A stretch of 64,000 bases of DNA from an uncultured virus (IMG/VR IMGVR_UViG_3300044639_002137) (taxonomy: Duplodnaviria > Heunggongvirae > Uroviricota > Caudoviricetes). This document shows, one piece after another, positions 3,064 to 56,669 of the stretch; positions within the stretch are counted from its first letter, which is position 1; every line of letters begins with the position of its first letter. The stretch is taken from the IMG/VR virus record IMGVR_UViG_3300044639_002137. One strand, given 5' to 3'. The notes beneath the pieces were generated by a model. That model saw only the letters and a list, made by a program, of their open reading frames with translations. It did no database searches and was not told the DNA's origin. The translations under genes were made by a program, and so were the position numbers.

Positions 3064-4420
3064 GGTACTCACATTCGGCCCACCAGGAACGCATCTCAGG
3101 AAACACCTGTAAAAAATTTGTCTCGTGGCGTCGATCTGCTTCGCTAAAAAAACGATAGAAGTCTGCTTGATTATGACTTTGATCCGCTTCTTGTCCTGAT
3201 CGCATCCAGGCAATGTCTCTGTCTAGCCTAGACACTTCATAGTCTTTGAAACCTTTGAACGGATCCGCCGATGTTTCCAGGTGTGCAGCCATGTAGTCTT
3301 TGACTGCATCTAGTCGTCTAGCATAGGATTCGCCCAGCGTCTGCAGACTTTGCCAAGCAGGTTCACGTAGCACAGGAGTATCAAACCACACACGCTGATA
3401 TGTTGTGCTGTGTTTTTTGCGTAGATCCAGTATGCCTGCCAACAGTTGATCCAGGCTTGACACACTGAGGTTATTCATTGTTATGATAAATGTCAAGCTG
3501 TTGTAACTGGGAATCTCGGTTAGGAACTGATCAACTCGATCCCACAGCAGATCAAAGTCCAGGCCGTGGCGTATGTATTCTGCTTGAGCTCCCCAGGCGT
3601 CTAGACTCACGTACTGCATGAAGTGTTCTATGCGTCCATCACATAGTTGTTTCACATAGGCCAGATACTTTTGCCATGACTTTTCATCCACACTAAAGTT
3701 TGACGTGACATTTAAATGCAGTTTGGCACTGGGGTTCTCCAGCACATAGTCAAATACTCTGTAAGTATTCCGATCCAGTAGTGGTTCGCCACCAGTCATG
3801 CGAAAGTGTTCCAGTTCAGGATACAGGGTGGGCCACCAGGCCCAGAATGCTTCTACATAGGGATTATGTTCCCGTGCTGGAATGGGCTTACGGTCACCAG
3901 AAAAATGCTCAGCAGCGTTATGAGGCACCAGAGTAGGATATGCACCGTGCCGATCAGTTTCTTGCTGCCAAGTGCTTGAGAACTGCGGGCTGCAATAGCT
4001 GCATGCAAGGTTGCAAACATTGTTAAAATTAACTTCCACGTAACTGGGAATAGCATCTTCATCTCCTGTTGATTTTGTAATTATTGAATAATCTTTGGCC
4101 GCCCAGGGTTCACCTGATCTATAATGCCGATCACTCAGCTTGTCATGTGCTTCCATATTCCAGCAATAGCTACACTCTGCAGGTTTGACGCCTGCCAGCA
4201 TGAGTTTGCGCTGTTCTTTTTTGTGTGGTGTATTGTGCAATGCTGCAGGATTGCGTCCAATATCTTCTATGGGTATTCGGTGCAAGGGCGGATGATAGCA
4301 ACTGTTATTTAATCCTGTAGGCAAATGCAAGCTGACCTGTTTCCATTTGGCAAGACACAAGGCAGGTCCAAGATCGGCCTGCATTTTTTCAGCTGAAGAT
4401 AAAAAATCGCTTTTGCTCAT
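3047..4420 (-). CDS. Radical SAM protein with N-terminal twitch-like Cys cluster (paralog of 578..1921)
   Basis: CNLACSYC, MTGGEP, LCLAKW..SCYHPP..CSYCW; extensive similarity to 578..1921 (NPYVEAF, QAEYIR.GLD). Confidence 0.88.
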   Translation of the reverse strand: MSKSDFLSSAEKMQADLGPALCLAKWKQVSLHLPTGLNNSCYHPPLHRIPIEDIGRNPAALHNTPHKKEQRKLMLAGVKPAECSYCWNMEAHDKLSDRHYRSGEPWAAKDYSIITKSTGDEDAIPSYVEVNFNNVCNLACSYCSPQFSSTWQQETDRHGAYPTLVPHNAAEHFSGDRKPIPAREHNPYVEAFWAWWPTLYPELEHFRMTGGEPLLDRNTYRVFDYVLENPSAKLHLNVTSNFSVDEKSWQKYLAYVKQLCDGRIEHFMQYVSLDAWGAQAEYIRHGLDFDLLWDRVDQFLTEIPSYNSLTFIITMNNLSVSSLDQLLAGILDLRKKHSTTYQRVWFDTPVLREPAWQSLQTLGESYARRLDAVKDYMAAHLETSADPFKGFKDYEVSRLDRDIAWMRSGQEADQSHNQADFYRFFSEADRRHETNFLQVFPEMRSWWAECEYHARQT

Positions 4421-12298: not shown

Positions 12299-15200
12299 TT
12301 AGATTTGTCCTCGGAAAAACCTTGCTGCATCTGTATTGGTCACTTGCAGTGCTTGCCCGTCTGACGGGTTGCCATTGGCTGGTTGATACCACCCAAATCC
12401 TTGACGTACCAGTATAGATACTTCGTATCCGTTGTCAGGTGCTGTATCAAACGTTACTGTGGCAGGCGCCACAGAATCCACAGTGTATCCAGCAGTGACA
12501 CGGATGCCACCCACAAATACCAGAATTGCTTGTTCAGCAAACGACAGAGTCAACTGACTCAAATCAATATTTGGTGCACTAAATGTAACAGTTGTTCCGT
12601 TGCCCAGAGTGTTGGTATACACCACGTGATCTTGGTATTCTTCAGGAGCTAAATTTCCGCGACCCAGGTTATACACTATTGCACCTGCGGTATGCACATT
12701 AGGTGCTGTTCCTGCTGTTCCTCTGCGTAGTCCACTTACCAGGTTGTTGTCAATATCAAGATAACGATACATGATTCGTTCACCATTGATTGTTAAAACA
12801 CCCCAGACATTGATTGCTAGATTTGGCTGTGTTAATGCCGCTGCGTTGTCGACATAAATTATGTCTTGATCCAGATACAAATCCTGTGTCAGGGTGGTCG
12901 TGGTTGACGGTGTCATTCTGTAGGTAGCTTGTACTCCGCGCATGTCTTGGAAAATGCGGAATTCCATTTGTTCTGGAACAACACTGTCTGTAAACAACTG
13001 GGCAACAACAACATCTATAACGCTGATCACCGGACCGTGTATAACCAGTTGCTCACCAACTATCAAGTAATCATCACCGTAGAATATACGATTGCCATTT
13101 TTGGTCACTACCATTCTGGTTGGATCAGGCACAATTCTGCCCAACTGGAAATCATTTGTGGTCACCAGTTGTCCTGCTGAGTAGTCATAGCTGCCAGGAA
13201 GTCCAGTTACTAGGCCCACATCAAAGTCAGTTGAATCATAGGGCTCAGGAACTACTACACCTGTTGTCACAGGTCCTTGCCATAACAAAGTTACTATTTC
13301 TTGTTGGCTTGTGTCATTCCATGAAGTTACAGAAATTATGTCTCCTGCAATAGGATAAAATCCATTGGTAGTACGCCATACCAACAAGGTATTATACAAG
13401 CTACTGCCATCACTCTGCAAAATATAATCTGCTTTGGTACTTACACTGATCAATACTTCTGACCCCGACGACGGTGGTATTGCAAATTCTACGTCTCTTG
13501 TGTCGTCATCAAGCACATAAGGTTCAATAGTAAATTCGCTGTACAAAGTAAGTTCTTGATTGTTGACCCATACACGAACATCGTTGTCTGCTACCAGCGC
13601 CAGACTGTATCCACCACGATTAGGAAGTGGGTAAGCTGAACTGCCGTCAGCAATGTAGTATGCACCCTCAGGAGGTCTTGCTCGTATACCATTTCGTTCA
13701 ACAATCAAGTTAGCAGTATTGGTTCCTTGCATTGAGTTGTCAAGACTGTATTCCAATTGTCCAAAACTCACAAAGTATTGAGTTTGCGGAGTTGACCAAC
13801 TGTTGGGCAATGAGCCATCAGTGGATCCAATGGCCGTGATGTTTAGCTCGTCAGCAACACCATAGGAAGTTGCAAACAAAATGTTTGTGGTATTGTTTGT
13901 TCCTGCGGTGTATGTGTAATTGGTTATCAATACGCCGTTGACAAAAATTACCATGTCTTCAATTTCGTTAACAGCCACAGGAATGTTAAAGGTATTTCCT
14001 ACCGTGGCTCCATTCACACTGGTTTTGTACAGTTGATTGCCGCCACCTATGCCATATATGCTGACAACTAATACGTCACCGTTGGCTGCTGGAGGAGCAC
14101 TAACACTGGTCAAAATAGTCACAGTGTTGGTGACCCAATTTACAATGTAATCTGTGTCAAGATTTAGTTCACGGCCTTGTGTTTGATTTGTTACTCGCAC
14201 CTGCACAGGATTTGGCACAATGCCGTCGAAACTTTGACCAGGCGCACTAACAGAATCATAGTACCACTTGACAATTTCCCAGGCAAATCCGTGACCATTC
14301 AACTCCCAATCAGATCCTGGGCGGGTATAAACACGGAAATCTAGTGTGTCATATTCTGAGCCAGGTATCAGTTCTTCAGGAGCATGGCTTTCGTAAGGTC
14401 CAACAAACTCGCCACCGGTTACATTTACATCATAGGGTCTTGTGCCAAGATAGATATCAACAAAACGACTTTCGTAGATGGCATCTAGAATTGCAGGATC
14501 ATAAGTTGGAAGACCTTCGGGTCCGTATGCAATATTATCAAACGGATTGATGTCAAAGTTGCCAACATCAAAGCCTGAGTTTTGATCAAACGTGGGTGCA
14601 GTAACTTGCACGCCTGGATAATCAATTCCATCAATCAACAATGGTAAGTCTAGTCCTGGTTCATTGGCAGTAGGAACATATAGCCCCATAGTTCTATCCA
14701 CGCCGGACAAGGTAGATGCACTAACTAATGTCCATTGTTCAGGATCAAATGTTACAGATTCCACTGCACTTGAGTCGGCGTTGCTGGCTTCCCATACTCT
14801 GTTGTCATATCGCACCAGGGTTCCGTTGTCATACTGAACCGTTGGTTCCCAGTCTAGGATTGTAGACACATATTGATATCTGTCAAACTTGATTGTGGTG
14901 TTGATGCTACGCACCAGATCGTTGCCCATTACTGCAACAATTCTGCCGCCAACTCCGTTGCCGCCCGATAATTCTATTAGAGCTGTGGTCAGGTATCCTG
15001 CTCCGGGGTTAGTTATAATTACACCAGTAATTTTGCCTGCACTATTGACGTCCACTGTCATGGTGGCCTGTATCAAACAATCTCCAGTAACTGTGGCCAC
15101 AGGAGGTTCGGTATATCCAACACCACCGTCTACAACCACAATGTCTTGAATGTTGAGAGTATAGTTGTTATACCAGAAGTTCCAAGGCTCTGTTTGCCAT

Positions 15201-18200
15201 ACCGGGCTGTCAGGTGCTGTATCACTATAGGTGTTTGATGTGCCGGTGCCCACCGCAGTACTTTGAGTGTATGGTGTCAACACTGGACTCATGAACTGAT
15301 TTGGAATTTGTATAGTGTTATAAAAACTTGGAACGTCAAAGTCAGTCATGCTGCCTTGATAAACGTCAGATCCATCATATATTAGATTGGTCTCGCGAAT
15401 CTGTACATGATATGGTTTGACTTCTTTGATATAGTCCACCACAAAGTCTTGATTATCACGTTGATAAGTCTGGAACGGCAACAGTTGACGGATCTTGTGA
15501 TCAACATCAACCAAGCTGGTTTTGCTCAACCAGTCAGGTGCTTCAAATTCACTGAGCACAAAGTTAAACATCAGTATTAGAGCTTTGTTTCGTTCAATCA
15601 ACAATTCGCCAATCAGCAATTCCTGATTGATGGCTTGAATAATTTTGCGAGTTTCTATCACTGGTTCTTGATCAAAATATTGCGCATCAAACACTTCGGA
15701 GTCAAACCCAAAGCGTCCCAGTTGATAATCCCACAGTTCGGCAGCAATAGCAATGGTGCCATCCTGCAGGCCTACTCGATCCCAACCAGTGTCAGTTCGT
15801 AGATAAATTTCCCATTTACCTTGGGCATTGGCCGTGACTCTTACACTGGCACCAACAGGAACGGTGTATATACTAAGTGTGTCAAGACTACTATAGACCA
15901 GTACTTCGGCTACTATCTGACTGCTCTGATTGTAACCAATCAGATACCAGTCAATGTAACTCCAGTATTTGCGGGTGTCGTAATTTTGTACTCGCACCAG
16001 CATCAACGATGCAAACGTTTTTGCTGTGGTAACGCTGTATATGGTCCATAACCCATTTTGCGCAGAATCAGCTGCAACCAGATACTTGTAACCCACAGGT
16101 ACTATGGCAAAATCTTGATAGCTGAGTTCTTCAAGATTGGCCACACGTTTGTCCCAGGCTCCTGTGCCCGCAGTTGGCTCTGGTTCGCTGGAATTCAACA
16201 AGGTAAAACTGCGAGTTTCTGAGATAGGAAATTGTGCAAGTACAGTGTTGACTCTTTCAAAATAATTTTCCAGTGCCAGGAATCTGTCAGCAAACATAGA
16301 CTGACGTGGTCTGAACTGAACACCGTAACTGTTGGCCGGACTTAGATTTGGGTCTGGCACCTTGGCACCAACAGTGTTAACACCGCACAAAGAATCCTGG
16401 AACTTGAGATACAAATTGTCCGGCAAGAATCCATCAGCACGATTTTCTGGAATCAGGCTGTATTCCACGTGAACATTGTCGTCAGTGTATTCTCTATCAA
16501 ACTCAATACTCAAAATTGTATCTTGTGCAGAAATATCGTTGACTGCATTATAGATAGCAGTTGCGCTGGAACTAACAAACGCCACATACGGGATACCCGA
16601 ACTACGAGGTTCTTCAATATATCTGGCAATACCAGTGGTGCTGAGAGTTTTTCCTGCATTGGTGTCAATTGAGGTAATGCCGCGAACCCAGAAATAATAT
16701 GTTGTGGTAAAAATTCCGTCAAGGTTTAGTCCAGTTGACAAATCGTAACTGACTATGCTTCTAGGAGTACCTTCGCCAGCATAGGTTGCAGGTGGTTGGT
16801 CGCTGGCTACCCATTGATACACATCCACTGTTGATCCCGGAAACACCTGACCCCAGCGGCGTGCTGCATATACAATGTTGTCTTGATTTGGATCAATAAA
16901 GCGAACATTGTTGGTATCCCACCAAATTTCTCCCACATGTACTTGTCCCCAGATCCTACCATAGTTGTTGACTGGTCCCACATTGTAGGCCGCAGGATCT
17001 ACTGCACCAATATAGTTGATATTTTCTCGTGCAGCACCGAGGATTTTGCCCTGCAAAGGATCAAAGAAATCAAAGAAATTGGTTTTTGCACCAGTGACAC
17101 GATCATATGTGAATACTGAATTGACCAACTTGACATCCACCACGGGCAACTGTTGGTGTATTGTTGTCCAGGCCGGAGTCAGTGTGAGATTTCTAAACAC
17201 AGCAACCCGACCATAATCCAGCTCGCTCTGAGTACTGTCGTCAATGTCACTGCCTGGACTACCAATCAACAATACGCCGTTGGTATAATCAATGGATGTT
17301 CCAAACAGATCTAGTTCTTGTACTCGTTGATCATATATTTGTTGACCAAATGCAAATTTACCCGGATTGCTGATTGAATCGCTGGCACTGGGCAAATAAT
17401 CATAAGTGTATACCACGCCACTTTGTGTCAATGGACCACTTATTGTTGTGGTTCGACTATCAAAGTACGTGGTTCCAGCATCAAACGTATTTGGACGATA
17501 CAGATTGCCACGAGGAGCACCCACTGTGAGAGTGGTAGCAAACGAATCAATGTTTACTGCTGATCCAAATCCAGCGTATGCAGCAGGTGCCGGGCTGTCA
17601 ACAGTTTGAGTGTATGCAAATGTATTAAACACCAGGCGTTGGAATGTGGTTCCTATTAGGCCAGGTAGTACTGTAAGTCGGTTGCCAGCATCAGCGGCCA
17701 ACATATTTTTAACACCAATTGTAATCAGGCCGTAGTTGGCTGTGCCTGCTACGCCAGCAACAGCCACAACGTTGTCTATGCCTGCGCTGTTGATGTCTTG
17801 TGCCAGCACTGCTGTCCAGCTGCTGGGTTGCCAGTATGTGGTGTCAGATAGTGCTGTTCCTGTTGGTACAGGTCTGATTGAGATGTAGAGACTCAGTCCA
17901 TAATCAACAATGGTATCCACTGGGTATGTTGATGCACTATTCCAGGCCACTGGCTGAGATAATGCAACCTCCTGGTCATTGATTCTAATTGTTTCACCAG
18001 GAATCAACCGAGGGCCAGGATTGGTACTGGCTGTTATACCGTACACTCGACTTTGATTTACATTGCGCTGGACCAAGCCTGCAGCAGGCAGTACTGATCC
18101 ATCTTGTGGTGCACCCACGTACAAGCTGCAATTGTTTTTGCACAGGTCAATAGCAGCGCCAAAATTAGCACTCTGGAACGGAGCAATGGCGCCAACAATC

Positions 18201-21200
18201 TGCAGCAGATTAAATTTGTTTACTTCAATTTCAATTATGTCGCCCACTGCCAGTGGTGTATCAATTGTGACTTCAGTTGTACTAATCTTGGTAAAGGTTC
18301 CTGTAACGTTTCCTTCTGTATTGGTCAAGAATTGATTGTTTAGAACTACAGATGTTGGCGCAACTAATGTTCCATCAACTGTGTAAGTTGTTTGAGCAGC
18401 ATTGGTCACAACAAAATTCTGCACAGCACGGTCAAATACATATACTGCACCAGCGTCAGTGATAGCATTGTAATAATCATTTGGTGTGCCAACCATTATC
18501 TGACGGCCGTCAGTGGTGCAACTTACACTTTCACCAAATCTAGCAGAGTCACCTAGTCTAGCAGTAATTGTAGTAGAAGCTACAGTTTGATTGATATTTA
18601 CCTGGTATGTTCCTGCTGCTCCAGTGCCGGTCAACAACGCTGTGATTTTTGTTCCTTGAGCTAGGCCTGCGCCGCTTAGGTTCATGCCCACAGTAAGTGC
18701 CGATGCTCCAGGCTGTGCATTAGATACTGTTAGTGTGGTTCCTGATATTGATGCTGTTACTTGTTGTGCGAATTCAATGGTGTCAACAAATGTAAAATAA
18801 CTCTGTGTTGCGACCGCGATGGTTGCTCCGTTACTGGGTACATTAACAAATATCAAGTCTCTGTCATTGTAATCAAAATCATAATCAATACCTGGTCGTT
18901 GCAGCACACCGTTGACAGTAACTTTGAAACTGTATATACTGGTAGCAGAATACAGGTATTCGTTCAATGGAAAAATATTATTTGTGCCAACTCCTGATCC
19001 AGCAATAGTAAAGGTGTTAATTGCACCCGAGGCCAAAATACTAGCTACGGTAATAACTAAATTATTTGCCGGGTCTGTTGCTACTGTAGGCAAAGAATTG
19101 GCATTGTCAATATTTGTGCCAAGGAATGTAAGAGTATTTCCAATAGCATACCCGGTGCCGGCTACCGCAAGCGATGCAGCATATACACCACGAGTATTAG
19201 TAATAGTGAACTTTGCCCCTGTTCCTGTTCCAGTTTGCGAATTGGAAGATAATTCAGAATAAGTCGTTGAATCAATCTGCTGAGAAGTTTTTCGAACAAT
19301 CTTCAAGACCAGATCTTTTGCAGGTGCAGCAGCAAATACAATGTTTGTCGCTGTTTGAGAATAATCTACTCCGTATATCAACAATTTATTGTTCAACACC
19401 ACACTAAGTTGTTCTTTATAGATTGTTCCATCAATTATGATGTGATTACTATAGTTAAATGTAAATTGTTGACCATCGGCTACATACGCAACTGATTGAT
19501 TTTCAACTTCAACTAACCCGTATGCAAATACTTTGTTGATGCCCGGGGCACCAATGTACATCCAGTGTTCGTCTGGACTGACTGCAACACTGTATCCAAA
19601 TTCTGCTGGATATGCCAGGTCGCTAGTGTCTGGAACTGTTAGCAGGTTGGCATTGATAAAACTTGCTGAATCTGGTTGGCGGTATACAGCTGATACATAT
19701 CCTCTGTTGTTGTAACTTGCAGGTGCACCCACTGCTTGCCATGTTTGATTGCCAATGCTTACACTGGATCCAAAGCCCACAGTATCAGCAGCACCATCAA
19801 GTTCTAGTACTGAATTTTCAGCAAACTGAGCAATTTCTGTACGAACATAGGTGTATAATGCACCAGTACTAGGGAGCCGACTCCAGACAACAGGAGTTGT
19901 ACCAACCGTAACTACTCCAGCAGTTTGTATCCAACCTGTATTTACATTTTGAGTACCAGTAGAAACAAAAGTAAATGCACCATTAAATTGAGTTGATATG
20001 TTCATGTCTACCGAACGAGTCAATACAAAATACACAGCACCGGTGCCTGCTGTTGTTAACGTGTATATACCGTTATCAGGGGCATTACCGCCAGTTTCGT
20101 TTTTAACTAAAACTCTAGTACCTATTGTTGATATTGTTTGACCATCAACAACTAGTGCTCCAAACGCAGTAGCAGTAATAGTTGCACCAACGCCAGCTGT
20201 GCCGTTGTTGTAAGTGTAGGCTGGCATTACCGCAGCAGTAGCAGCATATACTGAAGCCTTGGCATTAAGACCTTGATCATTGTAGTTTGGACTACCAACA
20301 ATGGCATACAAGTTGCTCTTGGCCTGCGCCACACTTTGCCCAAACTTGCTGTTGGTCACAGGATTTGTTGCTGTTATTTCTGTTGCAGAAGAAAATACTA
20401 TCTGTTTTTCTAATACTTCCCATAGCCCTGCACCGTTGTTGTCTACCCATACCTTGTTGCCTGGCAGTAGGTCATTGGCATATGGCAAGGTTATTATGTC
20501 GCTGGCTTGTGCCACACGTTGAGTTTGCAGCACAAATCCAATGCCAGTTCCTGTTGCTACCAGCTGGCCACTATTGACAAAGGAAAAATCAACAACAATT
20601 TGGGTAATGCTAGGAACACCAATTACTCTGTACACTCCATCAACTTCTATAGAGAAAAATCTTACCACAAGCTGACGGCCAACTGTGATGCCATGCGGTG
20701 CAGTAAATGTCAGCACCGCGGTTCCGTCAAGATTACTGCTTACTGAAGAAATATAACCAGGAATCTGGCTTGTTCGATAGATGTTCCAGTCGTAGTCATT
20801 GATCTTGGCCACCCAGATAACTGTGCCCACACCAATCTGATCAAGATTTGCATCCAGGCTTGCTGTGTTGGTAATATCAAATACAGTAATGTCAATATCA
20901 TCAAGATTCACATAGCCAGCACCTGGCAGGCCCACGTCAGTTGGATTGACTGTTGTGGTTGTAAGAATATTGGTACTAGGTATCTTGTAACTTTGTTTCC
21001 ACAAGTTGCTCAACAACACTGTTTGATCAGCTTCGCTGATTTCTCCTGTCTGAACCACTTGTATCAAGCTGGGGTTTGCTCCAAGCAAGGCTTCGTTCAA
21101 TTGTAATTCGTAGAAACTACGGTTGGCATTGGCACCATATGTGGCTCTTAGCACAGCCCAGTTTTCATAGATATCATACTGTGCCGGACCGCGGCCCAGA

Positions 21201-24200
21201 TCAGCAAACGAAAATAGTTCAGCTGCTCTAACAGTGCCTTTGGTACCCAGAAACTGCTGATACAGATTGACCTGACTGGTGCTGTCAAGATTCAAGGAAA
21301 CCATGTATTGTCTAGGTTTGAATCCAATCAGTCCGTATGAAAACAAGTCTTGATTCTGTTCAAGATTGGCGGTGTATGTGTTGTAGCTGTTGGCCAGTTG
21401 ATTGCTCTTGTTGGCCAAGTTAGGTAATAGTCCTTGTTGTATTTTGGTATAGTCTGAGATTGTCCATTCGTTGAAATCAAACTTGGCACTGGGTTGAACA
21501 ATATCGATTGCACTGTAATAAAAGTTTTTGTACTCCACAATCTCACCGCGAGCATATTTGACGTTTTGGCTCCAGGGCTTGATGTTGTCTTGGTTGAGAA
21601 CAAATCCTTGTGCATTCAGCTGACCGTTCCACTCAGTGGTGGTTGTTCCAATCAATTTCACACGGTCTTGTCTTGCACCGGTAATTGGCTGATAGATCAA
21701 GTCTGCAAAAATACTCACATTGTCCAGCACAACCATGTTTTCGTAACTGGTAAACTTGATGTTCAAGAAGTTGATGGTTTCGTTGGTCACACTGCGCACA
21801 GCAAAACGATTGTCACTGCGTTCAATCACAAGATCTCTAGCATTGAATGGTTTTCGATCCGCATTGAGTATCATGTTTTCAGCAGTTTGAACAGCAATAC
21901 TATCCACAACGGCTCCAGCACGTTCTACAATCAGTTGGGATGCACCGGGGTTGAGATTGACGATTGCTCCGTCGGTCCAGCCTTGATTGCTCCAGTACAG
22001 GAACTCGCTGACCATCTGATTCCAGTCTAGCACATACCCGTTTTCTAAATTGTCAAACACAAGGCCTTGACTCTGCAACAATGCACCGTAGCTCAACAAG
22101 AAGTCGGCCACAAGAGTGCGATTGGTAAACACATAGCCATATGGTATCTGAACCACGTTGTTGCTGTATTCCACAGGAACACGCACCGTGCTGCCACCAG
22201 CTGAGATTGTTGCTAAATTACCATTGATTAGGCTTTGCAATATACTGAAGTATGGCTGAGTCATGTTGTAACCATACACTGCCCAGCCTGTGGTTGTGCT
22301 TTGAACAATCACACTGGAGTATGTGAGTTGAGCAAATGGCACATTCTTGTAGAACAAGAGATTGTAGCTTTCGTCTGGCAGCAACAGAGTTGAATTCAAA
22401 CTATTGGGGCTGGATTTTTCAGTGTAAATTTGCAGAAGATTTTTACCAGTAAACGATGCCATTCTGTAGCACAATCTTACATCAAGATTTTTAAGATCAG
22501 CAGTAAGGGCAGTGGTAGAATTGATTCCGCTCACACGGTTAAAGTCCACAATCCAATCAATATAACTGGCCTTGCTGACACCGTTGCCATACACTTCAAT
22601 ACCATTGGCATCCAGTCTATAACGTCCATTGTAGAGATACTGGTTGATAGACGTGTCAAATCTATAAAGATCTCTGTCGGCAAACAACGAGAAAAATTCT
22701 GCTGGACGAGTCAGGGCCAACAGTCGCATGGCAGCAAATGGATATGCACTAGAGGTACGCCAGGCGTTTTCTACTGGACCGTCGTCACCCACAACCCAGC
22801 TCTTGCGGAAGTCGTTGCTGTTGAAATTGCCCACCATTACTTGCATGGGACTCAACAAGGCACCTTCACTGCCAGACGGAATCACATCTGTCAACCCAGG
22901 GCGAACGTATTCTGGCAGCACATACGGAGCCACAGGATCTCTAACCAGGCCTGCTGCTAGGTCTTCCCAGAGCACCAAGTTGCCTGAAGTATAGGGGGCT
23001 GGTCCATATTCGTCTTCCCACCATACAGGTATAACACTAAACCCCAACATCTCCCAGGGTCTAGTGTTTGGATAAATTGTGTCGTAGAAATAGTTGTAAA
23101 GCCCGCGCCAGGCACCTACCACCAGCGGCTGGTTCGCAGTTAACTTGTTTGATGCTGTGGAATAATTCCAGGTGAATTGATTGTTCTGTTGGTAATCTTG
23201 TGTTTTGTAGTCTAGTTTGTTCCAGCCTACCCAGGTTAGAAAATCTTCGCTGAGAATGTCTGTTATTTCACCAAGTGTATAATCAGTAGTGCGGAATTCT
23301 CCAGGCACAACTTGGGCTGTGGTCAATGGCACAGGATTGCCGTCCAGTTTGAGATTGTTATAGATTCTAGTTTCAAACTCCAGCAGCAATGCATCGCGGA
23401 AATCACCAAATGCTCTGGTAATAGATCCGTCATGCCCACGAATAACAAAAACTGGATTTACATAAGTTTCATCAAGAAAAATTTCTGGAATATAAGCTGG
23501 ATACAGTCCCAGTTTGGTAGGAGTGTTTGGCACATAGCTGCCGTAGGTCTCAGGATATTCTTGTATGGTAACCACGTCTCCTACTGCCAGCGGTAATGTG
23601 ATTGTAATTCTAGGTCCATCTGTTGCGACCACATACCCAAGATCACGAGTCAATAAAATATCATTTACATAGACCAACAATCCAAGATAGTTGGCTGAAG
23701 TATAATTATACACCTGTGTGGTGTCAAACACCGCGGTAGAAATTGGAGTTACTGTGGTTTGTAGTTGTGTGTACACGCTGCCAGTGGGCAGCATGTCACT
23801 CCAGTAAAATGGATTGCTGCTGGTGCGACCAAGTGTGATGTCAGAAATTACTGCTGTGAGTATTTCTGGCACTGTGAGATTGACATAATCATTGGTCACT
23901 GCTGTGTTCAACAGTTGTGCTTTGAATTTTTCGTATTCTCTTGAATTGTATGAAAGAGCAGCAAAAATTTCATATTCAGGTTTACGCAAGAAATAACCAG
24001 CCAGGGTCATTGGCGAACTTTGCTGCAGAATATTCAGACCATAAGGAATAATATTACCAAGATCTCTAGTGTTGTTGGCACCGTTGACTTTGCCAGTCAA
24101 TGACACTAGATTCTGTGCAATACTTTCGTAGTGAGTTCTCACTGTGCCCAGTGTGAAGTTTGCTGAGTTGCCGTTCAATGGATTGTTTTCAAGATTGACA

Positions 24201-26953
24201 GGAACTTGATAAAAGCCCACTGAACTAACTTGATCACTCAGAGCCAGAACTTCAATGACATCGCCAGGTACTATAACAATGTTGCTGTTAAATGTAATTG
24301 TGGTAGTACTAGCAGTAGTAGTAAAGGCATATGCTGTGGGGTCCTGGAAAACACTACCTACATAAATTTTAACACTGGGCACGACTCCTGTTGGAACCAC
24401 AGCCACATCAAGTACCAGCGGCGTATCAACAACTGATGTAAAACTAAATTGTTGATAAATTACACTCTTGGTTGCAGCACGTTGCCATCCAATTTCTTTT
24501 TCATACACAATTCTATCAGCGTATTGACGAACAAATCCAATACTAATAGGATTTTCAGTGCTGATATTATTGTCTACGTGAATGAACGTGTCTGTATAAA
24601 AGTTGTTGTCAAATACAATATCGCCCACATTGTTGATACTAAGGTATCGTAGAGCAAATCCCAACACAGTATCATCAACTCCTGCCCCCACTGCATAACT
24701 GAACAATTTGCTGCCTACAAATGAAGAACTAGGATAAACTGCACGATTACCAAGACTAAATCCATCTTGGTCATATACATTAAACAAGGGCGCCTGGTTA
24801 ACTGATGTTTTTTCTTGTGCTGTGATCCATTGAACACCATCGTAGAAAAAACTTATACCTTGCAAAGTGTTGCCGCTCAAACAAACAGTACATTGATCAA
24901 TCAATACATCTGCATCAGACGCAGGCACTAGATTAATAACTGGCTGAAGTATTAATGTACTGCCATCTGTGCTGGGAGTGATAAACTCCACTAGATAAAT
25001 TTTGTTGCGAACCTGTGGGTCGTTGTCGGCTGCAAAGATCACTCGACTTCCAGAAATAAAAGAGTACCCGTCAACTGCATATCCAATGGTGCCATTGATA
25101 GTTGACAAAGCGTCAGTTGTTTGAAAGTCTATAATGTTTACTGGTGTCTTGGCCTGGGTTCCCATGTCAAACAATCTAGTGCCGCCACGAAATTCTAGAA
25201 TAGGTCGCTTGGCACGAAACGCATTGTCTATAAACGGAACAGTGTTGTTGTATTCTGCAGATGCATTGATGACATCAATATGAAACCAACGATTAGACCT
25301 GGTCCAGGCATTACGGTCAGGACTATCTAGTGCAATAGTAAGATAATCAGGCACCAGAGGTTGATTTAAACTGGCATCAAAGTTACCTATGTCAAACGGC
25401 AGTGAATCAAACGGCACCGTGGCGCTTTTGGTGTAGGTCTCTGGAGTAACGTAATCAGTGATTGGCAACAGTTGTATAGCTGTGCCCACCCCGGCTACAT
25501 AATAGGTTTGATTCTGATAACCAGCAGGAACAACGCTGCCTCTAAAGATAACTTTGAGGTTGTTGGTAAACACCACGCCGTTGGGCGCAACATAATTTTT
25601 CTTGCCAAGGATGTCGGTTACTATATTCAGTGTTTCAACTTGGCTCTGATCAATCAGTCGAATCTGGCCAAAAATTTCTGGGTTGGTTCCATCTTGATAC
25701 CACAGCAGATCTTTGATTGCGGTGAGCAATGGTATTTCTTCAAAATAGCCTTCTGCATCGCGATACCACTGGGTTCCAGCCCATTGAGTCCCAAACATTA
25801 TGGTGAATTTATTCAGCAGCGGACATTGTGTCACTGATGACAATTGCAGAATGGCATTTCCATCATTGTCATATTGATATTGTATTGCCCAAACACTATA
25901 TCGTGTGTCAACATTAAGGATTGGAGTTGTTTGATCGTATACTTGTGTATCAAAACTACCGAGTAATCCATTGTTGGTAGGAATCTGAGCCAATGGATCA
26001 AATTGACTAGTGATCAACCAACCGCCGTCGGTTGGGTCGGCAATCTGATTGGTAAACACCACCGTGCGACCGTTGAGATTTGTGATCCCATCAATGCCCG
26101 ACGGATATTGTGCTAAAAATTCTGACAGATATATGTTGTTGATTTGATTGAATTTCAAATCAGTTATCAAGTCCACTTGTCCAACAGTCGGGGTAGTTGG
26201 CACCAGTGTTAGATCATAATAGAATTGTTGAGCGTTTTTCAGCGGAACATTAAAAGTTACTGTTCCAGCATCTTCGCCGTTGTTGATAACTCCAAGTACG
26301 TCTCTTGAACTGATATTAGGAGCGTAGGGTAGGCGACCGTTTACGCCAGGGTCAGTTTGTATCCAGAAGCCATTGGGGGCTTGATTTACAACAAAATCAT
26401 AGTTGCCGCCGCGAACCAGAGTGATGATGGGATTCTCACCAGCGATTCCTGAAAAATCATATACATCTGCGCCACGAGTAACGTCAAAACTATCTGTTAT
26501 TGGAATCACTGTGGCACCGACGTCCACTGACAACGGACCGGCTGGCAACCAATAGTACTGACTGTAGTTTGCAAATTTATCAAAACTAATAAACGGATCC
26601 CAGGTATAGTAATCACTGGTATATAATCTGTCTGAGTCGTTTACCTTTGCGCCTTGGCGAGCCAATGCGTCAGAAATACCAGGATAAGTTATTGCATCAG
26701 AAATATCTGTTGTGTCTGGTTTTAGACTGATTACACCTGGTTCCAGTTGATAATTTGCTCGTGTGGCATTGGGCTCAACCACATAATAGTCATTGGGATT
26801 TACACCCGGGCCAACTTTGCGACCAACAAAACCTTGTGTCTTTTTAAACTGCGGCTCTTGAACCAATTGATCCAGAGTAGCTGCCAAAAATTGTTTGTTG
26901 GTAGCAGTTTGAAATATCGGTGGTAGAAAATCTACGGTTCTTGTTCTATCCAT
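12299..26953 (-). CDS. Giant 4884-aa virion protein (baseplate wedge/fibre-like; FG-GAP-like propeller repeats, small carbohydrate-binding-like modules)
   Basis: Uninterrupted ORF directly after the gp6-like gene. Repeats FGQSVA/FGSSVS/FGYSVA/FGESVS/FGAAID/FGSAVN/FGTSID, W..(Y)..G..V.Y modules, YIKEVKPYH. Confidence 0.8.
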
Positions 26954-41467: not shown

Positions 41468-43535
41468 AAATCTCACTGTTCGAAACTTCATGAGCGTGGG
41501 TGCTGCTACCCAGGCCATCAACTTTGACCGCAAAGACATTACCCTGGTGCTGGGCGAGAATCTTGATCTTGGTGGTGATGGATCACGCAACGGCACAGGC
41601 AAAACTACAATCATCAATGCACTTAGCTATGCCTTGTATGGCACGGCTCTGTCAAACATCCGCAAGGACAATCTAGTAAACAAGACCAACGGCAAAAACA
41701 TGCTGGTTAGTCTGGAGTTTGCAGTCAACGGTGCAGAGTATAGAATTGAACGTGGGCGCAAACCAAACGTGCTCAAGTTTTATGTGAACAATGAAGCCAC
41801 AGTGGCCACAGACGAAGCACAAGGTGATTCAAGAGAAACACAAGACGCTGTGGAACGCATTATGAACATGAGTCACGACATGTTCAAACATGTTGTGGCT
41901 CTCAACACCTATACCGAACCGTTCCTGGGTCTAAAAGCCAATGACCAACGAACCATCATTGAACAGTTGCTGGGTATTACACTACTGAGCGAACGTGCTG
42001 ATGCAATCAAAGAACTGGCTAGAGGCACCAAAGACTCAGTATCTCAAGAAGAATTTAGAATTAGAGCAGTGGTTGAAGCCAACAGCCGTATTGCAGAACA
42101 GATTGAAAGTCTCAAACGACGACGAGTGCTATGGCAAAAAAAGCAAGACAGCGATCTTGAATATCTTGCCACACAGTATGCTGATCTAACACAGATCAAC
42201 ATTGAAGCTGAATTGCTGGCACACCGAGATCTTGCCGTCTACAGTCAACAAAAGACAGCACAAGATGCGCACACTGCCTTGGTGGCTAGACAAACCGCCT
42301 GGCGACAAAAACAATCTCGAGACGTAGCCGACTTTAGAGCCAACTATGATCTACTGAGCCACATTGACATTGAGGCTGAACTGGCCGCACATGCCGCTCT
42401 GGCTGCTCACTCCCACCAGGTCAAGAACACAGCGGATATTGAAAAGCTAATTACACGTTGTAGAGCTGATGAGATTCGAGAGCAGGCTGCTGTTGCCAAA
42501 CTAGCTGCAGAGATTGCTGAACTAGAAGCACACAAATGCTATGCTTGCGGACAAGAGTTCCATGACGGAAGTCACGAAGCAGTACTAGAAGACAAACGCA
42601 AGACCCTGCAAGAAGCTGAACTACAGGCTACGGCCACAATGAGTCAGCTGATCGAACACACCGCAGCACTGGCAGCTCTAGGCGTGTTAGGTGCAAAGCC
42701 TGTTACACACTACCGCACTGAAGCAGAAGCTATTAGACATTCAAGCGAGTTGGAAAATATTCAAAAGCAAATTGATGCCAAACTTGACGAACTTGATCCC
42801 TATGCCGAACAAGTGTCAGAATACACTGAGGTTGTGCTAGGTGCTCAGCCAGTCACTCACTACGATACCGAAGCCAAGGCAGTCACACACCTGAGTCAGG
42901 TTGCCAACTTGTTGCAACAGATCACTGCCAAGACAGCAGAAACTGATCCCTACACTGATCAGATCAACGACATGACCAATCAGGCTTTGCAGACTGTGAG
43001 TTATGATGCCTTAAACGATCTCAATCGATTGCAGGAGCATCAGGACTTCTTGCTCAAACTACTGACCAGCAAGGACAGTTTTGTTCGCAAGAAGATCATT
43101 GATCAAAACTTGAGTTATCTCAACGCAAGGCTCACACACTACCTGGATCGTATTGGCCTGCCGCACACTGTGAAGTTTCAAAACGATCTCACAGTCAGTA
43201 TTGAAGAACTGGGTCGTGAACTGGACTTTGACAATCTCAGCAGAGGTGAGCGCACCAGACTGATCTTGAGTCTGAACTTTGCGTTCCGTGATGTTTGGGA
43301 AAGCCTATACTCTCCGATCAACCTGTTGTTTGTGGATGAACTGATCGACAACGGACTAGACACAGCAGGTGTAGAGAATGCTCTGGCCTTGCTCAAACGC
43401 ATGAGTCGTGAACGTCACAAGAGTATCTGGCTTGTGAGTCATAGAGACGAACTGAGTGGCCGAGTAGAAAACATACTCAAGGTTGTGAAAGAAAACGGAT
43501 TCACCAACTACAATACCGAGGTTGAACTGGCATGA
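41454..43535 (+). CDS. gp46: Recombination ATPase (Rad50/SbcC-like)
   Basis: Walker A NGTGKT, zinc hook CYAC, signature LSRGE, Walker B LLFVDE, SH; TTG start. Confidence 0.9.
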   Translation: MIHIKNLTVRNFMSVGAATQAINFDRKDITLVLGENLDLGGDGSRNGTGKTTIINALSYALYGTALSNIRKDNLVNKTNGKNMLVSLEFAVNGAEYRIERGRKPNVLKFYVNNEATVATDEAQGDSRETQDAVERIMNMSHDMFKHVVALNTYTEPFLGLKANDQRTIIEQLLGITLLSERADAIKELARGTKDSVSQEEFRIRAVVEANSRIAEQIESLKRRRVLWQKKQDSDLEYLATQYADLTQINIEAELLAHRDLAVYSQQKTAQDAHTALVARQTAWRQKQSRDVADFRANYDLLSHIDIEAELAAHAALAAHSHQVKNTADIEKLITRCRADEIREQAAVAKLAAEIAELEAHKCYACGQEFHDGSHEAVLEDKRKTLQEAELQATATMSQLIEHTAALAALGVLGAKPVTHYRTEAEAIRHSSELENIQKQIDAKLDELDPYAEQVSEYTEVVLGAQPVTHYDTEAKAVTHLSQVANLLQQITAKTAETDPYTDQINDMTNQALQTVSYDALNDLNRLQEHQDFLLKLLTSKDSFVRKKIIDQNLSYLNARLTHYLDRIGLPHTVKFQNDLTVSIEELGRELDFDNLSRGERTRLILSLNFAFRDVWESLYSPINLLFVDELIDNGLDTAGVENALALLKRMSRERHKSIWLVSHRDELSGRVENILKVVKENGFTNYNTEVELA

Positions 43536-44545
43536 CTCTGGCAACCTGGCATTTCCATATTGAAATATCCAGCAAGTGTACCCTGAGGTGCCCAAGGTGT
43601 GCTCGTCAAGAAGTTCCTGATGGTCTAGTCAACACAGAACTAAATCTAGAATTTTTCAAACGTAATTTTACTCCTGAGTTTGTGCGGACCAATGTAGAAA
43701 AAATTACATTCTGCGGCGACGACGGTGATCCTGTATACGCTCATGATCTGATACCTGTTGTACAGTACATCAAAAGCATCAAGCCTGTGGAGATTGTGAT
43801 TGTGACCAACGGTAGTCATAAAAAAGTATCCTGGTGGAATGAGCTTGGACTGTGCCTGGGACCACAAGACAGTGTACACTTTAGTATCGACGGGTATGAT
43901 AACGCCAGCAATAATTTATATCGGGTGAACAGCGATTATGACAGCATAGTTGCAGGGTTGCAAGCACTTAGAGCCGCAAGCCTGTGTCAAATTGTTTGGG
44001 CTACAATTGCATTCAAATTCAATGAAGATCATATGGAACGCATGCAGCAATTTGCCAAAGATCTAGGAGTAGACCGATTTCAGTTGACCAAGAGCACAAA
44101 GTTTGGCAGTGTGTATCCATCATATGGTGTTGATGATCCACTCGAACCCAGTGTAAAATTTGTGAGTGGCACCCATCGTTTTGAACGTGAAGTTGTTGCG
44201 TTATCAGACGCAGGTGAGTGGCAAGAAATTCCGTTAACAAACTTAAAATTATTCAATCAAACCCCAAGTCGCAATGGTATAACACCCTTGTGCAAGATAG
44301 GCAACAAGGGCTTGTATATTGATGCTCGTGGCAGATTATTTCCCTGCTGCTGGGTGGCCAATAGATACAATCACAATTCAGACTGGCAGCAAATAGCAAA
44401 CAATTTTAATTTAAATACCAGAACACTTGCAGATTCAATCACAGACCCTTTTTGGGCAGCTGAGTTTCAGTCATTTAAGTGGCAGGAATGCCAGTCTAAA
44501 TGCAAGAGCTCAGTGGTTGATGAAAAATATGCCACAACATGGTGA
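43532..44545 (+). CDS. Radical SAM protein with C-terminal twitch/SPASM-like Cys cluster
   Basis: CTLRCPRC, CGDDGDP, C-terminal C..LYIDARGRLFPCCW..CQSKC. Confidence 0.85.
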   Translation: MTLATWHFHIEISSKCTLRCPRCARQEVPDGLVNTELNLEFFKRNFTPEFVRTNVEKITFCGDDGDPVYAHDLIPVVQYIKSIKPVEIVIVTNGSHKKVSWWNELGLCLGPQDSVHFSIDGYDNASNNLYRVNSDYDSIVAGLQALRAASLCQIVWATIAFKFNEDHMERMQQFAKDLGVDRFQLTKSTKFGSVYPSYGVDDPLEPSVKFVSGTHRFEREVVALSDAGEWQEIPLTNLKLFNQTPSRNGITPLCKIGNKGLYIDARGRLFPCCWVANRYNHNSDWQQIANNFNLNTRTLADSITDPFWAAEFQSFKWQECQSKCKSSVVDEKYATTW

Positions 44546-44587: not shown

Positions 44588-45016
44588 ATGACATGGCACT
44601 ATCAAAACACTCCAGTTGAGACACTGCCCGAAGAATGCATAGGATTTGTTTACCTGATCACCAATAATCTTTCTGGTCGCAAGTACATAGGCAAAAAACT
44701 AGCTAAATTTTCAAAAACCACATACAAAACAGTCAAGCAAAAAAACGGCATCAAGAAAAAAAAGAAAATTAGAACCAAAATTGACAGTGATTGGCGCGAC
44801 TACTACGGTTCAAGCGAAAATCTTACTGTTGACGTAAACACCCTAGGCACCGAAAACTTCACCAGAGAAATACTTTACTATTGCACTTCAAAGGCACAAT
44901 GTTCATACATTGAAGCTAGAGAACAGTTCGATCGCAAGGTATTAGAATCCACAGATTATTACAATGGCCATATCTCAGTCAGAGTACATGGCTCACACAT
45001 CATAAACAAAATTTAA
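44588..45016 (+). CDS. Stand-alone GIY-YIG family nuclease
   Basis: GFVYLITN...KYIG, YYGSS, FTREIL, E..EQ, YYN. Confidence 0.8.
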   Translation: MTWHYQNTPVETLPEECIGFVYLITNNLSGRKYIGKKLAKFSKTTYKTVKQKNGIKKKKKIRTKIDSDWRDYYGSSENLTVDVNTLGTENFTREILYYCTSKAQCSYIEAREQFDRKVLESTDYYNGHISVRVHGSHIINKI

Positions 45017-45019
45017 GGC

Positions 45020-45420
45020 AACACAAACGACACTGTGCCGAATGTTTGGTTCGGCTCCATTGAGGAACGGTGAGATACCCGGTCCGGACTTGGACGTCAA
45101 AGGCAATTGCTAACTTAAGGCAACAAATGGTCGGGGCTCTGTGAAACAGATACAACCCCTGCTTATAGGACTTGGATCTTGATCGGGTTACTAGGGTTCC
45201 GTTGATATGTGAAGCTTGAGTAGGGGGTACCGGTCAACCGCCTCCGCGTGGGTAACCACAATCTCATTATTATAGATGACTGCTGTCACTCGGATGATGC
45301 ATTCAATTCACCGTGCATACGGTGAATTATGACCACATAATCTGGATGATACTAAATTCAGTAACAAAGAAATCATTGATGAGCGACAGCGAATCAATAG
45401 ACTTGCTACGCAAGTCTCTA
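45020..45420 (+). ncRNA. Putative structured non-coding RNA or ssDNA element (unknown family)
   Basis: The largest gene-free gap in the window, with about 10 consecutive stem-loops including a GTAA tetraloop hairpin and a perfect 10-bp hairpin; strand assignment is tentative. Confidence 0.55.
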
Positions 45421-45443
45421 AACAAATGAAAGTTTCCGTTTTA

Positions 45444-45680
45444 CTAAAAAAATGGCAATCCACTTTTTTTGGTGGTCTCTAAATTGTCTTTGATAAGTTC
45501 GCCTATGAGATCTCGTTCACTGAGACCCAGTGCCATGGCCTGGTCGTATGTCAACCCACCACGCATGAACCAACTCATTTTCAATGCCTCCCGACGGATC
45601 TGTTGGCAGTCTTTTTCCATACCCTCAACTAGATCGTTGATTTGTTCAGGACTAGAGGTTAGGAGGCGTCTTCGAAAAAA
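45444..45680 (-). CDS. Tail-assembly chaperone extension (gp51/gpT-like), probably reached by -1 frameshift
   Basis: Helical FFRRRLLTSSPEQ...SWFMRGGLTYDQAM...ERDLI; overlaps the end of the upstream gene in the -1 frame. Confidence 0.6.
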   Translation of the reverse strand, partial: FFRRRLLTSSPEQINDLVEGMEKDCQQIRREALKMSWFMRGGLTYDQAMALGLSERDLIGELIKDNLETTKKSGLPFF

Positions 45681-46495
45681 CTTGACAAATCCAGCGTAAA
45701 TGCTTGTTTGTATTTGTGACTGCATTCTTTACAAGTTAGGTCCAAGGGCTTGACTTCGCTGGCCTGTTTGAGACCAATCACATAATCTCTCAGCTGGTTG
45801 AATTTTTTGCTGTCGCAATTTTTTAGAAAATCCACAATGAACTCAGTTTCTGTCACCATGGCCTGAGGTGTTTTGATTGCAGCAATGCTTTGTGCAACTG
45901 TGTTCAAGGTAGTTTCATTGATTACAGCTATGCTTTTGTTCAGTTGGTCAATTTTGATTTTTTCGTCTGCGTCACTGTTGATCAACTGCATGGCCTGCTG
46001 CTGTTCCAGTTGTACCTGATTGTTTTGATTCACAGTGCGATAGGTTATGGGCTTGAAGTAAATTTCTAAATCGCCTATGTTCAGCACCTGATCGTAGTTG
46101 CCCGCACTTATCATGTCGTTGACTCGTCTAAGGTCCACAGAAATTTCATCTGCTTCGTTGCAGGCTGGGCAAGTGGTGCCAATCTCCATTTCATGACCGT
46201 AACTAGCAATTCTAATGCCCACTAGCACAGCATCAATGTCTGTGCTGGGCATGACCCAGGGATCACGAATACTAGGAACACAGCTCTTGATCACGTTGAC
46301 TGTGGCAGTACCGTTGAACAAGGCATCAGGCGTGCGATAGGTGATTTCATCCACACTGGTCATGGGCAACACTGGTAATTCGCTGTTGGGCGGCATCTGC
46401 AAGGTGCCCGGTGGGTAGAATTTCCCACCAGATGGCAATCGGATGTAAACAGCTGGTTGGCGAAAATACTGGGTTAAAGGGTTGTTTGGTAGCAT
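45659..46495 (-). CDS. gp26: Baseplate hub assembly protein, gp26-like
   Basis: YIRLPSGGKFY, PMT..DEI, DIDAVLVGIRIASYG, CPAC and CKEC, ends SSFF. Confidence 0.75.
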   Translation of the reverse strand: MLPNNPLTQYFRQPAVYIRLPSGGKFYPPGTLQMPPNSELPVLPMTSVDEITYRTPDALFNGTATVNVIKSCVPSIRDPWVMPSTDIDAVLVGIRIASYGHEMEIGTTCPACNEADEISVDLRRVNDMISAGNYDQVLNIGDLEIYFKPITYRTVNQNNQVQLEQQQAMQLINSDADEKIKIDQLNKSIAVINETTLNTVAQSIAAIKTPQAMVTETEFIVDFLKNCDSKKFNQLRDYVIGLKQASEVKPLDLTCKECSHKYKQAFTLDLSSFFEDAS

Positions 46496-55737: not shown

Positions 55738-55792
55738 GAGATATTTAAGAATACCGCAGCCTTGAGAAAAATAAACCTTTTTTGCTAAATAC

Positions 55793-55864
55793 AAGTCAAC
55801 GCAATACTGCGTTTTATGCGGTGATTTACCCTGCCGCGTACGGACTAGAACTCCGATCGGACTT
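55793..55864 (+). promoter_or_regulatory. Structured 5' leader (three hairpins, cloverleaf-like)
   Basis: AACGCA/TGCGTT, TATGCGG/CCGCGTA and CGGA-CTAGAAC-TCCG stems between TAAATA (55786-91) and the AAGGAG RBS. Confidence 0.5.
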
Positions 55865-55883
55865 CTTTAAGGAGAAAAAAATC

Positions 55884-56669
55884 ATGGGTCGTCCTCTTAA
55901 AATACAAAAAACTTCTACCGGCTCCGGCAATGGTGGCGCCAGCGTGGGTGTGGATCTTGGCTATCCGAACTTTGGCTCGCTCACTGTACCGGTATTTAAC
56001 TCACCGATACAAACACTCAATGACGCACAGTATGTGGGTGTGGTAGGTGGTGCAGCCCCTACGGATAGCCCCAGTGCTACCAATCCTAGAGTTGTGGTCA
56101 CAGTGAATATCACCTTGGCCACAGGCGCTGCCGCAGGTTCTGCCACTGGTTATATCATACGCCAAAAAGGCAGCCACAAGTATCTGGTAGGCGATGCCAC
56201 CACCATCAATGACGAAGACATACTGGTTGGTAATGCATACATGATCGTCACAGTTGGTGATACCAATTGGCAAGCCGCTGGAGCACCGATTGGTGCAGGC
56301 GTTGGCACAGTATTCACTTGCACCAGCACTGATGTTGGCGGCACAGGCACAGTCAATTTGGTTGGCGTGTGTGTGCTCAGCGATTCTGGATCTCCTACCA
56401 ACGGCAACATGAGCATTGCCTACATAGACAACGCCAGCTCTGATGTGTACATCAGCAAACTTACCAACCACTTTATCCTGGGCTGGGAAGGTGGTTCCAA
56501 CTATGATGCAGCTTCGGTCACAGGCGATCTTCGCAGCTTGGCCAACTTCTTCACAGACGAAGGCACCATGATCAAATCTGGCACTTCTGGCGGTGCCAAC
56601 ACCGGCAGCGTTTCGTCAGGACAACAAAATCTCTTGAACCTGGCACTGGTAGAAAACACCACTTCCTAA
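55884..56669 (+). CDS. Virion structural protein (possible head decoration)
   Basis: Start ATG 55884 (MGRPLKIQK) after AAGGAG; late promoter; Gly/Thr-rich; IIRQKGSHKYLV. Confidence 0.65.
   Translation: MGRPLKIQKTSTGSGNGGASVGVDLGYPNFGSLTVPVFNSPIQTLNDAQYVGVVGGAAPTDSPSATNPRVVVTVNITLATGAAAGSATGYIIRQKGSHKYLVGDATTINDEDILVGNAYMIVTVGDTNWQAAGAPIGAGVGTVFTCTSTDVGGTGTVNLVGVCVLSDSGSPTNGNMSIAYIDNASSDVYISKLTNHFILGWEGGSNYDAASVTGDLRSLANFFTDEGTMIKSGTSGGANTGSVSSGQQNLLNLALVENTTS

Follow-up and report, generated by a model that had tools for sequence, protein, structure and literature searches.

The window, meaning the whole 64,000-nt stretch of DNA analysed here, derives from an uncultured freshwater T4-like phage. 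It encodes a gp55-like late sigma factor and SbcD/SbcC-like gp47/gp46, as well as baseplate hub and wedge genes, the portal, the prohead protease and the major head protein. The gene row gp55-gp47-gp46-radical SAM-GIY-YIG is followed by a conserved RNA of ~390 nt with a complex fold, which occupies positions 45027-45417 of the plus strand. The nearest virus record, a 77-kb piece with an estimated completeness of 22%, carries a single copy of this RNA.

The last gene of the row (44588..45016, plus strand) encodes a SegE-type GIY-YIG protein of 142 aa. The protein matches the Pfam family PF19835 (SegE_GIY-YIG) with 110.2 bits (cut-off 25; E 1e-31) and phrog_447 with an E value of 1.1e-35. The FVY and YIG motifs, whose residues may have a catalytic role, are readable in the translation, and together with the score above the cut-off they place the protein in the SegE-type group. 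The PF19835 match spans residues 3-129 of the 142, as expected from the original prediction that only the catalytic domain is present; the C-terminal DNA-binding domain that completes the architecture of the Seg/I-TevI homing endonucleases is absent. A PDB sequence search with the protein gave no matches at E<=1.

Both strands of the 427 bases that follow the gene (45017-45443) lack open reading frames of more than 51 aa, in agreement with the earlier claim that no plausible gene lies there, and ARAGORN detects neither a tRNA nor a tmRNA in the stretch. The minimum free energy is -132.2 kcal/mol, whereas shuffled sequences average -112.45 (sd 5.9; z -3.35), and none of 100 shuffles equals it. 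By blastn, dozens of IMG/VR contigs carry the element at 75-94% identity, and cultured phages give no match. We gathered 159 IMG/VR loci by querying with the radical SAM neighbour and the GIY-YIG protein, and a further 120 through a pattern built on an invariant stretch of the RNA. A pattern scan of genome contigs returned the gene together with the RNA on two contigs of one MAG, and one chance match within a Pseudarthrobacter gene.

Conservation of the fold was assessed on an alignment of the window and 43 distinct copies (A1, 44 sequences). RNAalifold assigns 91 pairs to A1, 35 of them with double changes; this structure was corrected using a covariation scan of 109 distinct copies. The curated structure comprises 95 pairs in 20 helices, and 98.8% of its cells on A1 are standard pairs. 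Compensatory double changes are present in 38 of the 95 pairs (343 cells), values that none of 500 shuffles reach; a control in which the partners were slid by 1-3 columns yields just 4-8 such pairs and 7-18 cells. G-U pairs, which would be C-A if read on the opposite strand, occur in the plus-strand alignment, and the RNA strand is therefore the plus strand. The relatives thus bear out the proposal that a large, structured non-coding RNA lies on the same strand as the gene. How the RNA might work, as proposed below, is far less certain than that it exists and that it is independent of the nuclease.

Besides two three-way junctions, the overall fold has a pseudoknot that involves a loop, as well as GNRA loops, and it includes long junction strands that do not vary. 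The first junction (45029..45098) is closed by the helix GAC/GUC (45029-31/45096-98), in which one pair reads GC in 93 and CG in 10 of 109 sequences, and another AU in 98 and GC in 6. It contains a covarying hairpin (45037-43/45049-55) and a covarying helix (45056-59/45091-94) that encloses a further covarying hairpin (45064-70/45079-85); the last two supersede the originally proposed stem GTCC/GGAC (45082-95). A long-range helix GUCA/UGAC (45096-99/45330-33) suggested by RNAalifold was rejected, being broken in exactly those sequences that carry variants of the closing helix. The junction is followed by a short helix GGC/G(G)UC capped by a hairpin UUGC/GCAA (45102..45132), with a 9-nt loop, UAACUUAAG, that is invariant in A1 and includes the palindrome CUUAAG. 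Next come a hairpin GGGG...CCCC (45133..45159), with the outermost pair 45133-45159 varying between UA (53), GC (41) and CG (10 of 109), and a long covarying hairpin (45161..45197). The loop of the latter (AUCU, 45176-79) forms a pseudoknot with AGAU (45274-77), supported by the pair 45178-45275, which is CG in 56 and UA in 40 of the 109 sequences. The long near-invariant stretch beyond it holds a small putative hairpin (45198..45212), where a single G-U/G-C pair varies (GC in 4 of 109) and the pairing, lacking covariation, is unproven.

The second three-way junction (45217..45266) is closed by UGAG/CUCA (45217-20/45263-66); the pair 45217-45266 is UA in 56 and AU in 52 of 109 sequences, and this helix replaces an ACUU/GAGU helix drawn by RNAalifold. 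It encloses a hairpin with an asymmetric bulge and a UCAA loop (45223-45) and another with a GNRA loop (45248-59). Downstream lie two direct repeats, D1 (45277..45300, UGAC-N-ACUC-heptamer) and D2 (45330..45352, UGAC-N-AAUCU-heptamer). Their heptamers, R1 (45292-45298) and R2 (45344-45350), both read GGAUGAU. The hairpin between the repeats, H12 (45306..45327), is invariant within version 1 of the RNA, the version found in the window, while other versions keep a hairpin with a different sequence. Because H12 never varies within version 1, its pairing there is putative and unproven, as is that of several long stretches that are equally constant. After D2, an A-rich linker of variable length (45353..45374, the indel-rich columns 440-480 of A1) leads to hairpin H13 (45375..45398), which has a 6-bp stem, tandem G-A, GC/GC and a GNRA loop, and shows double changes in all eight of its pairs. 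The terminal hairpin H14 (45400..45416) shows double changes in four of six pairs. In the window its stem is not followed by a T run, and no plus-strand intrinsic terminator site is called at 45399-45430; many relatives in A1 show just UUUAAU after the stem.

Seven of the nine stem-loops originally listed are supported by the relatives: 45037-55, 45133-59 (the outer GGGG/CCCC), 45223-45, 45248-59, 45305-28, 45375-98 and 45399-417. Besides the displaced GTCC/GGAC stem, the exception is TGAC/GTCA (45277-88), in which the two middle positions are standard-paired in just 45 and 49 of 109 relatives.

The RNA is a nearly constant companion of this gene block. The protein-selected set of 159 loci was reduced to 117 by removing 22 loci that lacked the 3' end of the gene and 20 duplicates, and to 112 assessable loci by setting aside five with less than 500 nt of downstream sequence. 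The RNA lies downstream of the GIY-YIG gene, on the same strand, in 111 of these 112. Profiles of three different bodies divide the 111 into version 1 (52 loci), version 2 (15) and version 3 (44). Each version joins a 5' body of its own, 200-300 nt long, to a common 3' module of ~170 nt. No alignment is possible between the 5' bodies of different versions, and the version-1 profile matches versions 2 and 3 solely from model position ~205-270 onward. The common module consists of the ACUC-heptamer, a hairpin, UGAC-N-AAUCU-heptamer, the linker, the hairpin N6-GA-GC-GNRA-GC-GA-N6 and the terminal hairpin; a cross-version alignment confirms that H13 is common to all three. Nearly every member of a clade of abundant lake phages thus carries one of three interchangeable RNA versions. 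A FastTree phylogeny of the 111 GIY-YIG proteins, weakly resolved for a protein of 142 aa, shows at least 20 changes of the version label, against 44-49 in the five label shuffles listed. The versions have therefore been swapped repeatedly between lineages.

One of the three versions begins with a motif that is already catalogued. The Rfam family RF01718 (Polynucleobacter-1) matches all 13 scanned version-3 loci with 84.6-116 bits (cut-off 37), and none of the five version-2 or six version-1 loci scanned. In version 3 the match begins 13-47 nt past the stop codon of the GIY-YIG gene, except at locus L010, where another gene intervenes. According to the 2010 publication (Weinberg et al., PMC2864571), the motif is 141 nt long, has 16 members from Burkholderiales and from fresh water or estuaries with one RefSeq hit, and is marked as probably RNA and probably cis-regulatory, with no function assigned. 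The alignment of that publication includes a copy in the Polynucleobacter chromosome NC_009379.1. The two RNAs share a freshwater origin, and in the sister phages the motif occupies the same spot after the orthologous GIY-YIG gene and is followed by the same 3' module. They differ in the 5' body of the window's RNA, which the motif does not match, and the published 141 nt exclude the 3' module. Present data thus place Polynucleobacter-1 as the 5' third of a phage RNA of ~450 nt: an orphan Rfam motif, unexplained since 2010, is only the first third of a larger molecule.

The window's RNA itself belongs to no Rfam family detectable at the gathering threshold (whole window) or at E<=10 (1.2 kb, and the 231-nt 5' part); RF01718 is included in this result, and the output at low thresholds consists only of chance-level matches to miRNA, snoRNA and sRNA families. 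By score the window therefore lies outside RF01718, with which it shares the genomic place and the common flanking module. The earlier statement that the RNA belongs to no known family holds for the window's own sequence, but its novelty is partial because a sister version begins with Polynucleobacter-1. A full-text literature search found the name Polynucleobacter-1 in PMC2864571 alone. The same literature yielded no description of the window's RNA, which may be included among the 10,006 viral candidate RNAs of a catalogue available to us in part (PMC10690425).

The most distinctive feature of the 3' module is the identity of its two heptamers. R1 and R2 lie ~52 nt apart on either side of a hairpin and covary by identity, not by complementarity. 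A strict pattern applied to all loci gave 109 distinct matches, 92 of them true modules and 17 chance matches elsewhere. The two heptamers are identical in 89 of the 92 modules and differ at one base in the other three. They take nine forms: GGAUGAU, AGAUGAU, AGAUAAU, GGAUAAU, AGAUGAA, GGAUGAA, GGAUGAG, AGAUGAG and ACAUGAA. Among 109 version-1 copies, position 1 of R1 and R2 reads AA in 66, GG in 39 and AG in 4, and position 5 reads GG in 58, AA in 46, GA in 4 and CC in 1. Within this version, positions 1 and 5 vary independently of each other (GA 46, AA 23, AG 23, GG 16) and of all other columns. The ~24 nt around the heptamers are repeated in direct orientation, though imperfectly, and the differences between the two copies are fixed (ACUC against AAUCU). 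The segment between them folds into a hairpin of at least six pairs in all 86 distinct cases, with G-U pairs in 35, and the stems of this hairpin differ between versions.

Ordinary helices cannot generate such a pattern of twin identity. No complement of the heptamer was found inside the RNA, where the best candidate pairs in 0.79-0.83 of the cells, and none was consistently placed within 3 kb, where the fullest 10-nt bin holds 6 of 89; whatever reads the heptamers would therefore act in trans. Most simply, a single reader acting in trans would have to recognise both heptamers, or both would undergo the same processing; they could equally be processing sites or sites bound by a protein at the level of DNA. 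Covariation by identity between two sites offers a concrete, mutable handle for experiments.

The RNA starts 3-12 nt past the stop codon of the upstream gene, too close for a separate promoter to fit between them. Between the GIY-YIG gene and the RNA in the window there is no promoter-like or terminator-like site on the plus strand, so that the absence of a separating terminator noted earlier is borne out. Metatranscriptome contigs cover both gene and RNA in four of four runs and bridge the junction in three (X16, 44834-45124; X17, 44926-45205; X18, 44981-45124); the bridging record of X15 has just 30 letters on the gene side. RNA libraries may contain DNA, and the bridging of the junction is for this reason weak support; contigs show neither ends, levels nor a discrete RNA. 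Positions 45381-45427 are without cover in three runs, and such gaps carry no evidential weight. Co-transcription of the gene and the RNA is likely: the GIY-YIG gene, the upstream neighbour, probably shares one transcript with the RNA.

We tentatively favour a stand-alone RNA made by read-through, in which a scaffold is read twice by one trans-acting factor and an exchangeable 5' body serves as the functional domain. Reading through the upstream genes would produce the RNA, which would then work on its own and not with the GIY-YIG protein. The 3' module would act as a recognition scaffold, displaying two identical single-stranded heptamers ~52 nt apart. Both would be read by the same factor, which could be a protein dimer or else a complementary nucleic acid, present in two copies and encoded at another place. 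The 5' body would carry an activity specific to each version, with host takeover, anti-defence and regulation as candidates. Large RNAs with a comparable, conserved, tertiary-looking structure are rare, and have repeatedly proved to be ribozymes or the cores of RNA-protein machines.

A role in cis would likewise suit the constant location of the RNA next to one and the same gene block in all relatives. The RNA might be an element of its own transcript, a 3'-end stabiliser, a terminator or an insulator at the border where rightward early/middle genes meet leftward baseplate genes; if the next gene is on the plus strand, it might instead be a leader controlling that gene. Several observations agree with such a role: the RNA always lies at the same gene border, it ends in two hairpins, and Polynucleobacter-1 was considered probably cis-regulatory by its 2010 authors (PMC2864571). 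Of 135 distinct loci, 101 have the first open reading frame beyond the RNA on the opposite strand, as an insulator or terminator would have it, and 30 have it on the plus strand, beginning just past the RNA, as a leader would; four have none. The orientation of the neighbours does not settle the choice between cis and trans. However, ~390 nt with junctions, a pseudoknot and invariant strands far exceed the needs of a stabiliser or terminator, and the last hairpin in the window, with no T run, is not called as a terminator. The genes on both flanks vary, so that no single regulated gene emerges. We regard a cis-acting element as unlikely.

The folded transcript might alternatively be a replication RNA that acts at its own locus as a persistent hybrid or primer, for which ColE1 RNA II and the T4 origin transcripts are models. 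The repeats would be initiator sites and the A-rich linker an unwinding element. The two identical direct repeats do adjoin an A+T-rich stretch and are spaced by about five helical turns, and the position is constant in all relatives. However, plus-strand G-U pairs are retained in the hairpin that separates the repeats, a constraint at the level of RNA; the repeats number only two, and there is no known initiator gene. This explanation appears quite improbable.

A bolder reading, to which we assign only a small probability, takes the family for a phage RNA that is modular and can be programmed. The matched heptamers would then encode specificity by pairing twice with a target elsewhere, a nucleic acid of the host or the phage, and the exchangeable 5' bodies, among them the orphan Polynucleobacter-1 motif, would be alternative effector or sensor domains. 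Were this true, T4-like phages would possess an RNA-directed system of a new kind, which a nuclease might use.

A self-processing ribozyme or processed precursor, in which the heptamers mark two cut sites that free a hairpin RNA of ~52 nt, is very unlikely. Identical sites around a hairpin do resemble repeat-spacer or tandem-unit precursors, and the fold has the complexity of a ribozyme; yet no known ribozyme family in Rfam matches, and the RNA contigs, which cannot show ends, contain no consistent joints or ends.

In the original prediction, the RNA was a partner, a guide or a processing substrate of the GIY-YIG nuclease. In its favour, the two are physically linked. Among the 111 protein-selected loci with the RNA, the distance between gene and RNA, on the same strand, is below 130 nt in 89, but in the other 22 one or two plus-strand genes of several unrelated kinds lie between them, and the RNA starts directly after the stop codon of these genes too. 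The pattern-selected set (80 loci less two duplicates and five with too little upstream DNA) comprises 73 loci, in which the gene lies within 130 nt in 55, 130-2500 nt upstream in 16, and nowhere within 2.3 kb in two; it is thus found within 2.5 kb upstream in 71 of the 73. The linkage is strong but not obligatory. Co-assembly of gene and RNA in the RNA libraries and the lysine-rich insert of the protein also accord with a partnership.

Against it stands the wide distribution of the protein family without the RNA. A tblastn search finds homologues of the protein, none reaching 60% identity, in 496 records of cultured phages, among them cyanophages, the Methylophilales phage Melnitz, and Sinorhizobium and Acidovorax phages. 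In five annotated relatives (Melnitz-3, ACP17, P-HM1, P-SSM7 and S-SRM01) there is no space for the RNA, because the next gene overlaps the GIY-YIG gene or follows within ~150 nt, and a search with the RNA profile at three of the cultured-relative loci returned nothing. One protein, moreover, accompanies three mutually unalignable RNA bodies, with the many version switches on its tree. No hypervariable, guide-like segment exists in the RNA: its variable parts are the A-rich linker and the covarying helix positions, and the heptamers take only their nine forms.

Nor does coevolution single out the nuclease. The normalised mutual information between GIY-YIG and heptamer positions is 0.34-0.47, against 0.63 for the best other columns. 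Nearly all tests with p93, radical SAM, baseplate and GIY-YIG proteins exceed a permutation null that ignores phylogeny, with 0.64 for p93 column 29 as the highest value among the larger sets, and this comparison is uninformative. Nothing between the RNA and the GIY-YIG protein rises above this clade-level background and the heptamers are not outliers, in statistics that ignore phylogeny and are weak in either direction. A nuclease partnership is the least probable of the readings considered here, and the tempting notion of an RNA-guided GIY-YIG nuclease is set aside as unsupported.

The analogy with HEARO, the omega RNA of IscB, fares no better. Both are large structured RNAs adjoining a small nuclease gene, but the window's RNA has no Rfam match, its neighbour is a GIY-YIG and not an IscB-type (RuvC/HNH) protein, there is no variable guide segment, and the linkage of RNA and protein is dispensable here.

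The group I intron of T4 td, with its GIY-YIG homing endonuclease, offers another comparison: a T4-like phage, and a GIY-YIG gene beside a folded RNA, with a local A-rich junction and hairpin superficially like P3-J3/4-P4-P5-P6. There is, however, no match to RF00028, the candidate long-range helix P3 is contradicted by covariation, and in two relatives no interrupted gene or second exon was found, the downstream open reading frames of at least 100 aa lying on the other strand. RNase P RNA, tmRNA and tRNA are likewise not detected by Rfam or ARAGORN. Resemblances noted by eye to the conserved regions of RNase P, to the group I P3-P6 layout and to a hammerhead core (45378-45393) were dropped because the nucleotides in question pair otherwise with covariation and no model matches.

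In size, complexity of fold and phage setting the RNA is reminiscent of GOLLD and ROOL, large ornate RNAs associated with phages, but it matches neither in sequence or model. By analogy with these RNAs, the invariant palindromic CUUAAG loop of the window's RNA could mediate self-association.

Two contigs binned in a single Haliscomenobacter MAG (L282 and L283) each carry the GIY-YIG gene together with the structured RNA, and their RNAs share 86% and 93% identity with that of the window. These are either phage contigs binned into the MAG or a hint of which host is infected. One hairpin loop of the RNA, UAACUUAAG at positions 45111-45119, is invariant and includes the self-complementary hexamer CUUAAG, through which the RNA could form a kissing dimer.

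In version-3 loci, those relatives whose RNA joins a Polynucleobacter-1 (RF01718) 5' body to the shared 3' module, the gene directly 3' of the RNA often encodes a protein beginning with MK[IV]Y[ED]I[IV][ST]E. Such genes occupy the forward strand in L123 (3900-5051), L128 (3928-4896) and L143 (3934-4875), as well as in L146, L147, L150, L153 and L155. Because this N-terminus resembles what we take to be the capsid-targeting sequence of T4 internal proteins, the products may, by analogy, be injected proteins encoded in a variable island. In three loci, the RNA is immediately followed by another, different GIY-YIG-looking ORF with a YIGKGKG motif recognised by eye (L021, 3040-3663; L079, 3043-3672; L100, 3926-4555).

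The window contains at least three radical SAM paralogues (581-1921, 3050-4420 and 43532-44545), and relatives carry additional copies, 22-29% identical, upstream of the orthologous one. On the reverse strand, a 93-aa ORF (45444-45725) overlaps by 67 nt a 278-aa ORF (45659-46495) assigned to T4_baseplate (PF12322) and baseplate hub family phrog_150. A single ORF of 4,884 aa (12302-26953, reverse strand) matches phrog_10938, a family of virion structural proteins (E = 2.2e-274), and is adjoined by a 1,146-aa baseplate wedge gene. The sole gathering-level Rfam match in the whole window is a freshwater-2 RNA (RF02980; 55797-55886, forward strand), which at 61.5 bits lies above the cut-off of 49.9 and overlaps the start of a forward-strand ORF (55782-56666).
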